Source: a candidate division WS1 bacterium
Lineage (GTDB): Bacteria > Armatimonadota > Zipacnadia > Zipacnadales > UBA5352
Assembly (NCBI GenBank): GCA_012522765.1
Contig: JAAYJW010000331.1
Coordinates: 2,331-66,330, forward strand
Length of the DNA: 64,000 nucleotides
Direction of reading: 5' to 3'
The notes beneath the pieces were generated by a model, which was given only the letters and a program-made list of their open reading frames with translations, ran no database searches and was not told the DNA's origin. A program made the position numbers and the translations under genes. Positions 49,503-56,605 of the stretch are shown here, one piece after another. Position 1 is the stretch's first letter. Every line of letters starts with the position of its first letter.

Positions 49503-50240
49503 ATGAACTTGACGAAGGTGCTGATGGGTATTGCGGTGGCGGGGCTTGTGCTGGGTGGGCTGGTCTGCGGGTTCGCGACGGCTGCTGAGCACCAGTGCGA
49601 CGGACAGTGTCGCCCGGACAGTGCGAACTGGCAGGAGTACCTCGAAGCTAACGATGCCAACGGCGATGGGATGATCTCACTTGAGGAGTTCGCTGCCGAG
49701 GATCATGTCTTCATCCGCATAGACGCGGATGGCGACGGGCTGATCAGCCGCGAGGAAGCCATCGCCGCCGAGGCGACGCGACACCAGCAACAGGGGACGC
49801 GCGGGCAGTTCCAGGCGACAGTGGACCCCGCCGAGCGCTGGCAGCGGATGCTCGATCATGTGGATGCGGACAAGAGCGGGACTGTCTCGCAGGATGAGTT
49901 CTCCGGCCCCGATCACGCCTTCACCCGGCTCGATGCCGACGGCGACGGGCAGTTGACTGAGGCCGAGGTCCTCGCCGCCGCTCCGCGGATGCAGCAGCGG
50001 CAGGATGGCGAGGGCGGCGGACGAGGCGCGCGGCTCGCCCCGGCGGAGCGCTGGCAGCAGATGCTCTCCACGTGGGACGCCGATGAGAGCGGGACCATCT
50101 CCCGCGAGGAGTTCCGCGGCCAGGACCACGCGTTCGATCGCCTCGACGCCGACGCAAACGGCCAGATCACCGAAGAGGAGGCACTCGCGGCGAAGGCTGC
50201 GATGCGGCAGGGCGGACGTGGCGCCGGCAATCGCCGCTGA
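49503..50240 (+). CDS. Secreted/membrane-anchored EF-hand repeat calcium-binding protein
   Basis: Signal/TM segment, then five EF-hand loops (DANGDGMIS, DADGDGLIS, DADKSGTVS, DADGDGQLT, DADESGTIS, DADANGQIT) in an alternating internal repeat. Confidence 0.8.
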   Translation: MNLTKVLMGIAVAGLVLGGLVCGFATAAEHQCDGQCRPDSANWQEYLEANDANGDGMISLEEFAAEDHVFIRIDADGDGLISREEAIAAEATRHQQQGTRGQFQATVDPAERWQRMLDHVDADKSGTVSQDEFSGPDHAFTRLDADGDGQLTEAEVLAAAPRMQQRQDGEGGGRGARLAPAERWQQMLSTWDADESGTISREEFRGQDHAFDRLDADANGQITEEEALAAKAAMRQGGRGAGNRR

Positions 50241-51960: not shown

Positions 51961-52767
51961 GTGCCATCGGTCAACGGTCAGCTAAGGACTGCCCTTTGTA
52001 CCATCGCGTTTCGCGAGCGGCTGCTCGAGTACAGCCTCGACATCGCCTGCGAGTCGTCCCTTGACGGAGTGGAGATATGGGGACGCGAGCCGCACATCTC
52101 CGAGGAGTACGATGCCAACCGCGTCGCCGCTGCTCGGAAGATGGTTCACGATCGCGGCCTTGAAGTAGCGGTCTTCGGCTCCTACCTCCGCCCCGGCGCG
52201 GTGGAGACGGAGAGCATGCCATTACGCGACGTCCTGCAGATAGCGGCGGGACTGGAGGCGCCCATCGTTCGCGTCTGGGCCAGCAATGTAGGGTCGGATG
52301 AAGCCGACGACGAAGTCTGGAGCAACACGATCGAGAGATGCCGGGAGGCATCTGTGGCGGCCGAGAGAATGGGTATGAGTCTGGCCGCGGAGATGCACTC
52401 GAACACTCTCGCCGATACGGCCGAAAGTGCGAAGCGGCTGGTGGAGGAGGTTGGCCGGGACAACTTCGGCCTCAACTATCAGCCACTGGCAAGGCTCGAT
52501 GACAATGCGCTGGGGCGTCTGGAAGCTGTTCTGCCGTGGGTGATCCACATGCACGCGCAGAACTACGCTGCTCTCGGCAACGGCGCTGCGAAGCTCGAAC
52601 GCGCGAGTCTGGCCGAGGGCGTCATAGACTACGCGCCGTTGATCGAGCGCCTGCGCCGGCATGGCTATGCCGGCTATGTCGCTGTCGAGTTCAGCCCCTC
52701 AAATGTCGCGGACAAGCGCGCGGCCGTGCTGCGTGACTGCATGTTCCTGCAGAACCTCAAGGGATGA
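51961..52767 (+). CDS. Sugar phosphate isomerase/epimerase (xylose-isomerase-like TIM barrel)
   Basis: AP-endonuclease-2 / TIM pattern (IHMHAQN, GYVAVEF). Start codon uncertain (GTG at 51961). Confidence 0.75.
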   Translation: MPSVNGQLRTALCTIAFRERLLEYSLDIACESSLDGVEIWGREPHISEEYDANRVAAARKMVHDRGLEVAVFGSYLRPGAVETESMPLRDVLQIAAGLEAPIVRVWASNVGSDEADDEVWSNTIERCREASVAAERMGMSLAAEMHSNTLADTAESAKRLVEEVGRDNFGLNYQPLARLDDNALGRLEAVLPWVIHMHAQNYAALGNGAAKLERASLAEGVIDYAPLIERLRRHGYAGYVAVEFSPSNVADKRAAVLRDCMFLQNLKG

Positions 52768-52910
52768 CCGGATTGCGCTGGCTCTGGCTGCCGCTGACAA
52801 TCGTCGGGATAGCAATGCTGCTCTACGGCGTAGAGATCGGCCGCCCGGACGCTGTGAAGCGGCATGCCATGACGCTGTGTACCGCCTGCATCGGCCTGAC
52901 CGTGGAGTGA
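52764..52910 (+). CDS. Unannotated 48-aa single-TM small protein, translationally coupled on both sides
   Basis: ATG 52764 overlaps the upstream TGA (ATGA), and its stop TGA 52908-52910 is 1 nt before the next ATG. Protein MTGLRWLWLPLTIVGIAMLLYGVEIGRPDAVKRHAMTLCTACIGLTVE has one TM helix plus a CTAC motif. Below the ORF-track size cutoff. Confidence 0.5.
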   Translation: MTGLRWLWLPLTIVGIAMLLYGVEIGRPDAVKRHAMTLCTACIGLTVE

Positions 52911-52911
52911 T

Positions 52912-53766
52912 ATGGTCATGGCCGACAGGAGACCTCGCCCGCCGCTCTACCTAAGAATCCGCGGATGGGTGCAGCTTGCGACTGCCCTGGCCGTCAATGC
53001 CCTGTTTCTCTACGACCTGAGACACATCTGCTTTCCGGTGCTCAACTGCTGGGCTTGCCCGGCGGCCTCCTTCGCCTGTCCGATGGGCGCACTGCAGGTG
53101 AGCATCTCCGCCATGCGTGGCGCGCTGCTGCTGCCCTTCTACGTGCTGGGCACGATTCTCGCCGTCAGCGCCATCATCGGCCGCGCGATGTGCGGCTGGC
53201 TATGCCCCTTCGGCTTTCTGCAGGACCTGCTGGCCCGCCTCGGACGCGCCCGGCACCGCATGCCCCGCGCCATGGGTTACCTGAAGTACGCGATCCTCAT
53301 CGTCCTCGGCGTCATCCTGCCCTACCTGACCTTCACGCCATGGTTCTGCGAGTTCTGCCCCCAGGGCGCGCTGCAGGGCGGCATCTTCCAGCCTCTGCTG
53401 TATCCGGAGCTTCGTGACTGGATCGGTAACTGGTGGTATCTGAAGATGGGGATACTGGCCGCCTTCGTGGTGGCCGCCATCTTCGTGCGCCGCCCCTTCT
53501 GCCACTCATTCTGCGCGCTTGGGGCGATCTTCTCGCTCTGCAACCGCTTCAGTCTGCTGCGGATGCACTACAACCGCGACAAGTGTACCGACTGCCTCTG
53601 GTGCGTGCGCGCCTGCCCGGCCGGGATCGACCCTCGCACCGATCTTGAATCGAACGCCTGCATAAGCTGTATGGAGTGCGCGAAATGTCCCTTCGATGCG
53701 ATCCATGTCACGACCGCCTTCTCATGCCCCGGCTGCCGGAAGTCCTCCGAGGGTGAGCCGTGGTGA
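52912..53766 (+). CDS. Membrane polyferredoxin (NapH/MauN/FixG-like 4Fe-4S protein)
   Basis: Repeated CxxCxxGxLQ motifs (CWACPAASFACPMGALQ, CEFCPQGALQ). TM helices. Two C-terminal ferredoxin CxxCxxCxxxCP motifs. Confidence 0.8.
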   Translation: MVMADRRPRPPLYLRIRGWVQLATALAVNALFLYDLRHICFPVLNCWACPAASFACPMGALQVSISAMRGALLLPFYVLGTILAVSAIIGRAMCGWLCPFGFLQDLLARLGRARHRMPRAMGYLKYAILIVLGVILPYLTFTPWFCEFCPQGALQGGIFQPLLYPELRDWIGNWWYLKMGILAAFVVAAIFVRRPFCHSFCALGAIFSLCNRFSLLRMHYNRDKCTDCLWCVRACPAGIDPRTDLESNACISCMECAKCPFDAIHVTTAFSCPGCRKSSEGEPW

Positions 53767-54476
53767 AGCGTAGCGAGTGGGACTCGTTGCACCGCGGCGA
53801 CATCAACCGGCTCACGGTGGAGATCCATCGCCGGGCGTGGAAGGCCCGGCCCGAGGTGCGGCATATCCGGATGGGCGGGCAGGACGCGGTGGTGAAGGAC
53901 TACGGGCGGGAGGCGAACATCTTCAAGCACCTGTTGGGCATCTTCCTCGTCGCGCGGGAGGCTGCCGCCCTGCGCCGGGCTGAGGGCCTGCCCCACATCG
54001 CGCGCGTGCTCGGCAGGCCGCGGCTGTGGATCATCGTCATCGAGTACCTCCCCGGCAAGCCCGTGACTGAGGTTGAACCGGGGGCGCTCGACGTAACGTA
54101 CTTTGACGAGCTGGAGCGGCTGGTGGACAACCTGCATATTCGCGGCGTGGCCCACGGCGACCTTGAGAAGCTCGACAACATCCTCGTCATGGATGATGGG
54201 AGCCCCGCCGTGGTGGATTTCGCCGCCGCGATCATGCCCGGCCTCAACCCGCTGGCGGCTCTGGCGCTGCCGCATGTGTGCGCGAATGACTACCGCGCGA
54301 TTGCCAAGCTGAAGGAGCGCGTTGCGCCGGAACTGCTCAGCGAGAAGGAGCGGCGGCGCCTGCACTACCGCACACCGGCGGAGCTGTGGTTCCGGCGAAT
54401 ACGCACGTATATACGTGACAGAGTGAAGCGAATGGCGGCCGGCGCCACCGAACGCGGCGCATCGCCCGGCAATTGA
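53760..54476 (+). CDS. Atypical protein-kinase-like protein (RIO/Kdo-kinase-like)
   Basis: HGDLEKLDNILVMDDGSPAVVDF resembles the HGDL...N...D catalytic and metal loop of RIO/KdkA-type kinases. GTG start overlaps the preceding gene. Confidence 0.55.
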   Translation: MVKRSEWDSLHRGDINRLTVEIHRRAWKARPEVRHIRMGGQDAVVKDYGREANIFKHLLGIFLVAREAAALRRAEGLPHIARVLGRPRLWIIVIEYLPGKPVTEVEPGALDVTYFDELERLVDNLHIRGVAHGDLEKLDNILVMDDGSPAVVDFAAAIMPGLNPLAALALPHVCANDYRAIAKLKERVAPELLSEKERRRLHYRTPAELWFRRIRTYIRDRVKRMAAGATERGASPGN

Positions 54477-54560: not shown

Positions 54561-55142
54561 ATGACGCTCAGATTCATCGGCGCAGATCGCGACCAGTCCC
54601 GCCTTCGCAGGGAGTTCGAGCGACTGGTCCGCGAACACGAGCGCGACATCTTCAATGCCGCCCTGCGCATGGCCGGCAACCATGCCGATGCCGAGGACGT
54701 GGCGCAGGAGGCGCTGCTGAAGGCATACGCCGCGTTCGAGCGATTCGAGCTTGGGACGAACTTCCGGGCGTGGATCCTGCGGATCCTTACGAACACTTAC
54801 ATCAACGAGTTCCGCAGGCGGCGGCGAACGCCGGAGATGACAACGTGGGACCTGCTCCCGCGGGAGGAGCTTGGGAAGGTCTCCAGCGACGATGCGCAGG
54901 ATCGCCCGGAGGTGGCTTTGCTGGAGGATGCGCTTGACGCCGAGGTAGAGCAGGCGCTGAGCGAGATCCCGGAGGTGTTCCGCGAAGCAGTGTTGCTTTG
55001 CGACATGCAGGGGCTGGCTTACAACGAGATCGCGGAGGCGCTTGGGGTGCCGATCGGCACCGTCCGCTCTCGGATCGCGCGGGGCAGGGGGCTGTTGCAG
55101 GAGAGGTTGCGCGAATACGCGGAGGCACGAGGTCTAATCTGA
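54561..55142 (+). CDS. ECF-subfamily RNA polymerase sigma-70 factor
   Basis: Region 2 (DAEDVAQEALLKAYAAFERF) and region 4 HTH (GLAYNEIAEALGVPIGTVRSRIARGR). Start MTLRFIG. Confidence 0.88.
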   Translation: MTLRFIGADRDQSRLRREFERLVREHERDIFNAALRMAGNHADAEDVAQEALLKAYAAFERFELGTNFRAWILRILTNTYINEFRRRRRTPEMTTWDLLPREELGKVSSDDAQDRPEVALLEDALDAEVEQALSEIPEVFREAVLLCDMQGLAYNEIAEALGVPIGTVRSRIARGRGLLQERLREYAEARGLI

Positions 55143-55143
55143 C

Positions 55144-55911
55144 ATGAGGCACGAGTGTGAGGAGATCAGGGAAGCGTTTTCAGCACTGCTTGATGGCGAG
55201 TTGAGCGAGACTCGCCGCAAGCTGGTGGCCGCGCATCTGCTTGTCTGCCCCGAATGCAGCACGGAGGCGGGACGTGTGATGGCCGCGAAGGGCCTCGTGG
55301 AGCGCGAGGAGCAGCATGCGCCGGTCCCGGCGGACTTCATGACGCGACTGCGCGCAGGGCTCGATCAGGCAGATGGCGTTCGGCAGCATGTCCGCCGCTC
55401 TGCACCGGCCCGCCGTGTGACGGCACTGGCCGCGGCGGGAGCAATCGCAGTAAGCATTGCCATCATCCTCAGCACCATGTTCTTCATGAGCAACGACAAT
55501 GCGCTGGCGCTGGCGCAGATGCACCAGCAGGTCATTGGCATGCCGGGCCCGATCCCGGGCGGCGGCTTTGCCGAGATAAGCTGCAATCCCAGTCGTGATG
55601 GGTGGACTGAACTGCACCGGGCGCTGATGCGCCCTGAGGGCACACTCGTTACTTACACGCTCTACCGCGTCGGCAGTTGCCCGGTATCGGTCTTCGATGG
55701 ACCCTCGACATGGGAGCCCTACCGCTCGGGCTGGCGCGTTACCGAGCGCATCGACGGCTTCAATGTGCGGCAGGTGGGCGATCACTCCATGACATCATGG
55801 GTGACCGGCGGGCGGCGCTACGTGCTGATCGCTACCGCACCGCCCGCGGATACCGCCGCCCTTGCGCGCGTTCATGCCTCCTCAGCACAGGGAAGGTCCC
55901 CCGGGCTGTAG
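55144..55911 (+). CDS. Anti-sigma factor (zf-HC2) with TM segment and periplasmic domain
   Basis: H-x3-C-x2-C (AHLLVCPECS). Coupled to the sigma gene (TGAcATG). TM segment LAAAGAIAVSIAIILSTMFF. Confidence 0.8.
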   Translation: MRHECEEIREAFSALLDGELSETRRKLVAAHLLVCPECSTEAGRVMAAKGLVEREEQHAPVPADFMTRLRAGLDQADGVRQHVRRSAPARRVTALAAAGAIAVSIAIILSTMFFMSNDNALALAQMHQQVIGMPGPIPGGGFAEISCNPSRDGWTELHRALMRPEGTLVTYTLYRVGSCPVSVFDGPSTWEPYRSGWRVTERIDGFNVRQVGDHSMTSWVTGGRRYVLIATAPPADTAALARVHASSAQGRSPGL

Positions 55912-55963: not shown

Positions 55964-56605
55964 GTGAGACATCGGCTTGCTCTCCTCATAGTCGTGCTGA
56001 TTACGGCCGCAACGATCTGCGATGCGCAGGCACCCGTGCGCGAGCCTCTTCAGCCGGGAGCCATCGCCCCGGATTTCACCGCCACCACCCTCGAGGGCGT
56101 CCCCGTCACACTCGCGCAGTGGCAGGACAGGGTCGTAGTGCTGAACTACTTCATCACCTGGTATCGGGATGCGGCCGAGCACCTCGACATGATGGAGGAG
56201 CTTCAGGACACCTACTCCGCCGAGGGGATGCGCCTGCTCTCCATCAGCCTTGATGAGGGCGAGCGTGGCCTGCAGCAGGTACGCGATCTGCTGCGTGAGA
56301 AGCAGATCGCGCACCCGATCGTCCTCGACCCCGAGCAGTTGGTGGCGGGAGTGTACGGCGTCCGGGCGCTACCTGCCATCTTCGTGATCGGCCGCGATGG
56401 CAAGATAGTCTACTACCACGAGGGCTACTCCGAGGGCGATGAGGTGCGTCTGGCGCGCGTGATCGCGCAGGCGCTGGGCGTGGATACGCCTGAGGAGCCA
56501 ACTACCGAAGCTACTGATACCACGGCGGAGGAACCGGCGACTGCGGAAGCTGCCGAGGCGCCTGAGGAGCCTGTCTGCCGCTGCTTCCGGCAGGAGGGAC
56601 AGTAG
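55964..56605 (+). CDS. TlpA/ResA-like thioredoxin-fold protein lacking the CXXC active site
   Basis: TlpA fold (APDFTATTLEGVPVTLAQWQDRVVVLNYF...ALPAIFVIGRDGKIVY) in which the CXXC position reads ITWYRD. GTG start with GGAGG RBS. Acidic tail ending in CRCF. Confidence 0.65.
   Translation: MRHRLALLIVVLITAATICDAQAPVREPLQPGAIAPDFTATTLEGVPVTLAQWQDRVVVLNYFITWYRDAAEHLDMMEELQDTYSAEGMRLLSISLDEGERGLQQVRDLLREKQIAHPIVLDPEQLVAGVYGVRALPAIFVIGRDGKIVYYHEGYSEGDEVRLARVIAQALGVDTPEEPTTEATDTTAEEPATAEAAEAPEEPVCRCFRQEGQ

Follow-up and report, generated by a model that had tools for sequence, protein, structure and literature searches.

A short CxxC membrane peptide encoded beside a Fer4_5 protein in an Armatimonadota genome: a divergent member of the CD1871A family and a candidate component of transmembrane thiol redox transfer

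The family CD1871A (NCBIfam NF040920, 'CD1871A family CXXC motif-containing protein') of short membrane peptides is named in the databases and functionally uncharacterised, is common in gut Clostridia and comprises at least 7,895 clusters in a profile search of the public proteins, which bear at NCBI the family name or, in some records, the name 'thioredoxin'. The namesake locus tag lies within the conjugative transposon CTn5 of Clostridioides difficile 630 (PMC3158075), and the literature on the C. difficile locus tags gave the mobile-element context only and no function. No publication on the family or on its pairing with Fer4_5 membrane proteins was found in the literature, and the family is mentioned neither in the selenoprotein preprint of Haft and Gwadz nor in the 2026 selenoproteome review or the deep-Sep paper. 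Among the described systems that reduce proteins beyond the cytoplasmic membrane, the pneumococcal CcdA-Etrx-MsrAB2 system (Streptococcus pneumoniae) uses CcdA as a conduit feeding exported thioredoxin-fold proteins (PMC3914529), and a search of the literature for polyferredoxins in connection with CcdA or thiol-disulfide exchange gave the classical CcdA systems only. The present analysis concerns a small open reading frame (ORF) in a stretch of 64,000 nucleotides (nt), hereafter the window, of contig JAAYJW010000331.1 (assembly GCA_012522765.1) from a candidate division WS1 bacterium of the Armatimonadota, which stands directly 5' of a gene for a Fer4_5 protein and whose product is assigned, from profile matches and gene order, to a divergent branch of the CD1871A family.

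At its maximal extent the ORF, a divergent CD1871A-family CxxC membrane peptide by its sequence, profile matches, orthologues and a JGI gene call, occupies 52764..52910 of the plus strand, from ATG 52764 to TGA 52908-52910, and its 48 codons give the product MTGLRWLWLPLTIVGIAMLLYGVEIGRPDAVKRHAMTLCTACIGLTVE. Since the GC-rich window holds 1,475 stop-to-stop segments of at least 20 amino acids (aa), an ORF of 48 codons is unremarkable by itself, and its reality therefore needed testing. A leave-clade-out hidden Markov model (HMM), built from 72 family peptides, all of them from outside the Armatimonadota, found a sole match among the 1,475 segments, at 52737-52907 (E-value 5e-11, 38.9 bits), with the next best segment at E 3.4. 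A word-based search gave three close homologues with lengths of 43-45 aa, of which one is deposited as a 'hypothetical protein' in an Armatimonadota metagenome-assembled genome, and the contigs of all three share the gene order of the window; a scan of metagenomes with the Fer4_5 protein of the window added about ten further orthologous loci, in all of which the small ORF is in frame. The reading frame, on the conservation of which the original prediction had staked the gene, is thus kept across about 12 Armatimonadota orthologous loci, with Nei-Gojobori ratios of nonsynonymous to synonymous substitution rates (dN/dS) of 0.35-0.58 between the window and the orthologues, and with a median ratio of nonsynonymous to synonymous differences (pN/pS) over all pairs of 0.63 in the real frame versus 1.20 and 1.33 when the frame is shifted. 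A chance ORF is ruled out by this frame-specific selection together with the unique profile match, and the comparative sequence evidence identifies the small ORF as a real protein-coding gene for a putative bitopic membrane peptide of about 45 aa. The small gene is called in NCBI, Logan and JGI records; its former description as unannotated holds for the ORF track of the earlier reader only, as the JGI source record Ga0239563_000057 (158,974 bp) already has a 48-aa gene call here.

The product agrees with its first description as a small single-helix membrane protein with a C-terminal CTAC. The hydrophobic transmembrane (TM) helix LWLPLTIVGIAMLLYGV is encoded at 52782..52832 (+), with a hydropathy of 2.05 versus the family mean of 2.44, and the CxxC motif CTAC at 52878..52889 (+), where it belongs to the signature C-x-x-C-[ILVM]-G-[ILVMF] that the family shows in an alignment of 77 synteny-collected peptides (alignment A2, which includes the 72 peptides of the HMM). 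In this alignment, C39, C42 and G44 are invariant across the 77 sequences, the window reading CTACIGL, and 68 of the 77 peptides match NF040920, with the best E-value of 8.8e-20. The window peptide matches the same model at 21.7 bits (E 1.4e-4) over the profile positions 3-37 of 38, has the build expected of the family (about 40-50 aa, one N-terminal TM helix and the C-terminal CxxC-[ILVM]-G-[ILVMF]), and stands in the family position directly 5' of the Fer4_5 gene with a gap of 1-7 nt, while its homology to bona fide members is given independently of the curated model by the leave-clade-out HMM (E 5e-11). What counts against the assignment is that the window peptide does not reach the curated NF040920 cutoff of 32 bits, and it is because of the score below this cutoff that the clade has been left as 'hypothetical protein' by the NCBI pipeline (P0003). 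On the strength of the NF040920 match, the leave-clade-out HMM and the synteny-defined relatives, the window peptide is classified by sequence as a divergent Armatimonadota branch of this known family. With the other members it has in common the length of about 45 aa, the single TM helix, the C-terminal CxxC-I-G-I/L-G and the place directly 5' of the Fer4_5 gene, and it differs from them by CTAC-IGL-(T-V-)E instead of the usual C(L/M/T)EC-IGIG and by the TIM-barrel gene as its upstream neighbour, the place of which is taken elsewhere by a lipoprotein redoxin. As to the family nomenclature, two members of 48-49 aa (P0166 and P0206) carry the label 'thioredoxin', which is an over-annotation for a one-helix CxxC peptide.

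The comparison of orthologues also bears on the start codon. Directly 5' of the conserved 'RW(L)W', 11 of the 12 orthologues have ATG, GTG or TTG as a start codon; its equivalent in the window is TTG 52773, with the 45-aa product MRWLWLPLTIVGIAMLLYGVEIGRPDAVKRHAMTLCTACIGLTVE, and the TTG was also chosen where genes had been called independently on a near-identical contig (P0001), while ATG 52764 is created by a window-specific base according to the alignment of orthologue DNA. The conserved start of the small ORF is, as judged from these alignments, TTG 52773 and not ATG 52764. A Shine-Dalgarno-like AAGGGA (52758..52763, +), read from the sequence within the final codons of the gene before it, precedes TTG 52773 by 9 nt, and the equivalent AAGGA is kept in the closest orthologues (L087, L088 and L089, the upstream DNA of which was aligned with that of the window), with 'AAGGA..TGA + 5 nt + start' as the layout common to the closest relatives. 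In the downstream gene, the conserved start is 'ATGGCCGA' at ATG 52918, and ATG 52912 is not kept in the orthologues; a GGAG just before the stop codon of the small ORF (52904..52907, +), 10 nt 5' of ATG 52918, is the likely ribosome-binding site of the Fer4_5 gene, and the orthologues likewise end in ...GGAGTGA, followed by ATGGCCGA 7-9 nt on.

The two junctions from which translational coupling had been proposed are present in the window, where ATG 52764-52766 overlaps the stop codon, TGA 52765-52767, of the 268-aa ORF on its 5' side (ATGA), and 1 nt separates the stop of the small ORF from ATG 52912 of the downstream 284-aa ORF (TGAtATG). However, these exact junctions are window-specific and not conserved, because both ATGs differ from the conserved starts at 52773 and 52918, with which the gaps in the window become 5 nt on the upstream side and 7 nt on the downstream side. 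The packing is tight throughout, with gaps of 5-9 nt in the Armatimonadota clade and overlaps of 1-8 nt in Firmicutes. From the sequence comparison, the ATGA and TGAtATG junctions are thus real but incidental, and it is the very tight packing that appears as the conserved trait.

The pairing of the peptide with its downstream neighbour was followed across many phyla in a sample of 80 genome loci with genes for relatives of the partner, with 82 distinct Fer4_5 loci, upstream of which the motif C-x-x-C-[ILVM]-G-[ILVMF] was searched. The strict motif occurs just upstream on the same strand in 71 of the 82 loci, whereas at the control positions it was found in 0/82 on the opposite strand, in 0/82 downstream on either strand, and in 1/82 further upstream; with the TGA-variant peptides of five more loci, described below, a family member stands upstream in 76 of the 82 Fer4_5 loci. 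In the reverse test, all four of the family members found by profile were located in an overlapping Redoxin->peptide->Fer4_5 cassette, and a two-component system adjoins the cassette in three of these four loci. The view of the small protein as a partner of a polyferredoxin-type membrane protein, already expressed in the original prediction, is well borne out by these counts. According to the Pfam census, the immediate upstream neighbour has the AhpC-TSA/Redoxin/Thioredoxin fold in 29 of 69 loci, which makes it the most frequent neighbour family-wide, and a redoxin-fold gene lies immediately downstream of the pair in four more loci. The 17 redoxin neighbours with WCxxC or C[GPA][PYH]C all have a hydrophobic N-terminal segment, mostly with a lipobox-type signal, and are for this reason considered exported; many of the 17 genes overlap the peptide gene by 4 nt. 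The peptide and the Fer4_5 protein constitute a conserved two-gene module, which is often extended by an exported TlpA/ResA-like WCxxC lipoprotein.

The partner gene lies at 52912..53766 (+), with the probable start at ATG 52918, and encodes a four-TM Fer4_5 (CX3CP-repeat) protein with a C-terminal 2x[4Fe-4S] domain (PF12801 x3, E 1.5e-18), both termini of which are predicted from hydropathy and charge to be cytoplasmic. The best named relatives of this 284-aa protein are NapH/MauN and NosR, all far below the cutoffs: the NapH/MauN model TIGR02163 gave 56.5 bits (E 2.9e-15) against the cutoff of 213. With the CcoG/FixG model TIGR02745, 25.8 bits were obtained against the cutoff of 316.7, and this match covers only the residues 222-257, that is, 35 residues of a generic ferredoxin domain in a protein of 284 aa compared with the 435 positions of the CcoG profile. 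The AlphaFold2 model of the partner, computed with 101 sequences, is a confident one, with a predicted local distance difference test (pLDDT) score of 91.7; the searches by sequence and by fold found solved relatives for the ferredoxin domain only and none for the membrane domain. The cysteines at the predicted inner face (C92, C96, C195 and C199) and the eight cysteines of the ferredoxin domain are invariant, as are C44, C47, C54 and C147 in the predicted outward loops, where C38 is also conserved at 94% and C144 is Cys in 52% and Ser in 44%.

Five loci of different lineages have an in-frame TGA at the position of the first Cys of the peptide motif (L009:2996, L010:2027, L023:2857, L024:2602 and L045:2971), after which the motif continues in frame (L-S/D/E-C-I-G-..) to the true stop, while the partner genes of the same loci are read through normally. 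SECIS-like hairpins with G-rich loops, located 12-25 nt downstream, have in the TGA loci a mean of -8.8 versus -3.9 kcal/mol in the 71 Cys loci (Mann-Whitney p=0.003; GC-corrected p=0.02). These five homologues, with selenocysteine (Sec, U) in a UxxC motif, probably represent an undescribed small membrane selenoprotein form of the family. In the window, the corresponding codon is TGT (Cys), so that the sequence features of a selenoprotein are found in the five homologues and not in the window. The exchange of Cys for Sec at the first CxxC position is known as a signature of a redox-active nucleophile, and the CxxC of the family is read as redox-active because selenocysteine (TGA) replaces the first Cys in the five homologues.

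Other variants of the locus were also seen. In L041:2920, L068:2929 and L074:2723 (Verrucomicrobia, Pirellulales and Planctomycetota), another, longer single-TM protein is encoded 5' of the Fer4_5 gene and ends with 'CPT-TGA-x(1-2)-stop', the TGA being present in all three loci; from its sequence it is a possible C-x-x-U selenoprotein that fills the position of the peptide. The peptide itself also varies in architecture: in L055, L077, L080, L083, L084, L085 and L058 an additional TM helix at the N-terminus goes together with a long basic loop, in L023 the UxxC motif is followed by a second TM helix, and P0124 is an 83-aa internal tandem duplication of the small protein. On the partner side, C144 (53347-53349, numbered from ATG 52918) is dimorphic in alignment A5, with the above frequencies of Cys and Ser, and in the genome set it is Ser in 4/5 UxxC versus 5/72 CxxC loci (hypergeometric p ~4e-4, phylogeny not controlled).

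The distribution of charges around the helix, with a net +3.0 in the N-terminal flank versus +0.34 in the linker, shows a positive-inside bias on which 67 of the 77 members agree, and the variants with extra TM helices fit the same topology; accordingly, the predicted topology of the peptide is N-in/C-out, with the CxxC outside the cytoplasm. The peptide is built of a single TM helix, followed by a short amphipathic linker and the C-terminal CxxC-[IV]-G-[IL], and with the N-in/C-out insertion its CxxC would come to lie at the outer face near C44, C47, C54 and C147 of the partner. On balance, we incline to the view that the peptide is a subunit of an iron-sulfur (Fe-S)-driven transmembrane thiol-disulfide relay together with the Fer4_5 protein. 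In such a relay, with the peptide inserted N-in/C-out as a subunit of the Fer4_5 protein, the electrons from a cytoplasmic donor would enter via the 2x[4Fe-4S] domain, would cross the membrane through the Cys or Fe-S sites that the CX3CP repeats provide, and would reduce the disulfide of the peptide CxxC (or UxxC), and the resulting dithiol would then reduce the exported thioredoxin-fold protein or another extracytoplasmic disulfide. A wider generalisation, which is put forward tentatively and may well not hold, is that the peptide and the Fer4_5 protein might make up an undescribed but widespread two-subunit, Fe-S/ferredoxin-driven thiol(selenol)-disulfide reductase feeding TlpA-like redoxins without CcdA/DsbD, with natural Sec versions and with a convergent CPT-U protein in the Planctomycetes-Verrucomicrobia-Chlamydiae (PVC) bacteria.

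Several observations weigh against the relay. The redoxin neighbour is present in about 40-45% of the loci only, and no natural fusions of the peptide with the partner were found, P0067 being a Fer4_5 protein with two inserted helices. The placing of the partner Cys loops at the outer face comes from hydropathy and charge only, and an Fe-S cluster assembled on the outer face would be unusual. Furthermore, the outer cysteines of the partner are invariant with the CxxC peptide, with the UxxC peptide, where the CPTU protein replaces the peptide and where the peptide is absent; since all of them are retained, the test of their co-variation with the peptide type is not discriminating. In the clade of the window itself, no CxxC redoxin adjoins the pair. 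The redoxin/AhpC-TSA-fold protein encoded four genes downstream (55994..56605, +; PF00578, E 5.7e-19), which has a signal/anchor helix, carries TWYRDA where the active site otherwise reads TWCxPC, so that this site is Cys-less; it has a conserved C-terminal CxC tail, 'EEPVC(R/H)CFR', and both features are common to its orthologue in L001 (L001:9188-9784). This protein is possibly, not demonstrably, related to the cassette, and no other CxxC thioredoxin-fold or CcdA-like gene was confirmed in the window. Because of the missing adjacent CxxC redoxin and the Cys-less nearby redoxin-fold protein, the confidence in the relay is lower for this locus.

An alternative, which is considered unlikely, is that the peptide is a structural or cluster-ligand subunit, the Cys pair of which would be no redox-active dithiol but would complete the Fe-S coordination or stabilise the fold of the Fer4_5 protein, as a NapH-like electron-transfer module linked to quinol or quinone. 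Such a role is in line with NapH/MauN and NosR as the best named relatives of the partner and with the number of the outer cysteines, since the four invariant and two frequent ones together with the two of the peptide make eight, which are enough for two cubane clusters; it also agrees with the operon partners in the window clade, which are sugar-type oxidoreductase and isomerase genes with no redoxin, and the module of this clade could then serve the co-transcribed Gfo/Idh/MocA dehydrogenase and the TIM-barrel enzyme. However, the replacement of Cys by Sec seen in UxxC is a hallmark of redox-active thiol/selenol chemistry, and we know of no established pattern of Sec as a ligand of Fe-S clusters; besides, an exported WCxxC thioredoxin-fold protein is the most frequent neighbour, whereas the synteny with the sugar enzymes is restricted to one clade. 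Quite unlikely, too, is a metal-handling subunit, the CxxC or UxxC of which would bind a thiophilic metal such as Cu(I) or Hg at the membrane surface while the Fer4_5 protein would act as a metal reductase and the TlpA-like neighbour would reduce a metallochaperone or deliver the metal. CcoG is reported as a cupric reductase, and the partner has the architecture of Fer4_5 and ferredoxin domains in common with it, albeit with the weak match given above. A CxxC at the end of a small protein of the membrane or the periplasm is characteristic of such metal carriers as MerT, MerP and CopZ, and TlpA-type proteins serve the assembly of copper centres, both of which are counted in favour of this role; so is the connection of Sec/Cys-rich motifs with heavy-metal chemistry drawn by Haft and Gwadz. 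Yet there are no P-type ATPase, CopZ, MerR, Sco or PCuAC among the 25 most frequent neighbour Pfam families or at the window locus, the partner fails the CcoG model by the above margin in score, coverage and length, and the usual GMxCxxC context is missing from the motif.

That the ORF does not encode a functional membrane peptide of the kind described but is a chance ORF, a leader peptide for coupling or a precursor of a ribosomally synthesised and post-translationally modified peptide (RiPP), could be argued from its very short length, from the many spurious ORFs of the GC-rich genome, from the tight junctions with both neighbours and from the dN/dS, which is only moderately low. It is nonetheless highly improbable in view of the conservation across phyla, the three invariant residues, the unique profile match, the frame-specific purifying selection and the thousands of family clusters. 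No maturase, radical-SAM (S-adenosylmethionine) or protease genes are consistently adjacent in the neighbour census, and the conserved part is the C-terminal 'core', which is the opposite of what is expected of a RiPP; the conserved C-terminal motif and the lack of a consistent maturase thus rule out a RiPP precursor or a leader peptide.

Concerning the surroundings of the pair, the upstream gene (51961..52767, +), taken in the original prediction for a sugar-phosphate isomerase, encodes a xylose-isomerase-like TIM barrel (AP_endonuc_2, PF01261, E 3e-25) and not specifically such an isomerase, and its synteny with the small ORF is kept within the Armatimonadota clade only (same order in L001-L005 and L109). 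The gene order of the window clade is Gfo/Idh/MocA, TIM barrel, small ORF, Fer4_5, kinase-like, extracytoplasmic function (ECF) sigma factor, anti-sigma factor, redoxin-fold and GlmU-like, and the region of +/-5 kb around the small ORF contains, besides these, genes for a DUF3604 protein, an M50 peptidase and an EF-hand protein. The last of these, at 49503-50240 (+), encodes a secreted or anchored protein of 245 aa with repeated EF-hand-like, calcium-binding motifs of the 'DADGDGxISxEE' type (faint or weak EF-hand Pfam matches, JGI). The kinase-like gene at 53760-54476 (+), which matches PRK12274 (E 1e-21) and, weakly, RIO1/Pkinase, overlaps the Fer4_5 stop codon and is followed by the ECF sigma factor at 54561-55142 (+) and the zf-HC2 anti-sigma factor at 55144-55911 (+), in an order kept in L001 and L002. 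The sigma/anti-sigma pair here and the two-component system beside the Firmicutes cassettes (three of four loci) give hints of a dedicated regulation.

For the window itself the practical gain is modest: the small gene is established as real, its start codon has been revised, and its product is assigned to a family that already has a name, although the curated model of this family does not capture the clade. As a testable function, an extracytoplasmic thiol-redox supply line bypassing CcdA/DsbD is proposed, based on the near-obligate pairing with the Fer4_5 protein, which is itself just as uncharacterised, the frequent exported thioredoxin-fold neighbour and the natural selenocysteine variants. 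If true, it would explain how many anaerobes keep their surface proteins reduced and would give a role to many proteins annotated as 'polyferredoxin' or '4Fe-4S binding protein'. The family-wide picture remains inferential and is a worthwhile lead.

Among the known systems with which the pair can be compared, FixS/CcoS with FixG/CcoG, to which the original prediction had likened it, has a small single-TM protein near a polyferredoxin-like membrane protein as well. However, no Pfam family, PF03597 included, matches the peptide at E<=1, and its family is NF040920, while the partner fails TIGR02745 as described above; with no ccoNOQP or fixGHIS within +/-5 kb, the identity with this system is ruled out by the profile searches and the gene context, for the peptide as for the partner. 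The partner resembles NapH, MauN and NosR in its core of four TM helices with CX3CP repeats and in the 2x[4Fe-4S] domain at its C-terminus, but it differs from them by the extra invariant cysteines in two loops predicted to face outward, no nap, nos or mau genes are found near the window locus, and, to our knowledge, no small CxxC subunit has been described for NapH or NosR. The ferredoxin:thioredoxin reductase (FTR) and the heterodisulfide reductase offer a mechanistic analogy only, in that a cluster beside a redox-active Cys pair converts the supply of single electrons into the two-electron reduction of a disulfide; FTR is a soluble enzyme, in the present pair the closeness of a cluster to the CxxC is hypothetical, and a relationship of sequence or fold is not claimed. 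In its proposed role, the pair resembles CcdA/DsbD (such as CcdA-ResA of Bacillus), as a membrane device that stands beside an exported TlpA/ResA/Etrx-like WCxxC lipoprotein and has cysteines so placed that they could pass reducing equivalents outward from the cytoplasm, although there is no homology between them and neither the peptide nor the partner contains a DsbD/CcdA domain. The support for a transfer role of the CcdA/DsbD type is contextual and comes from the exported WCxxC lipoprotein neighbour, the predicted N-in/C-out topology and the Sec/Cys exchange; in contrast to the cytoplasmic thioredoxin input of CcdA/DsbD, the input of the pair would be by single electrons from Fe-S clusters or ferredoxin, with the work divided between two polypeptides.

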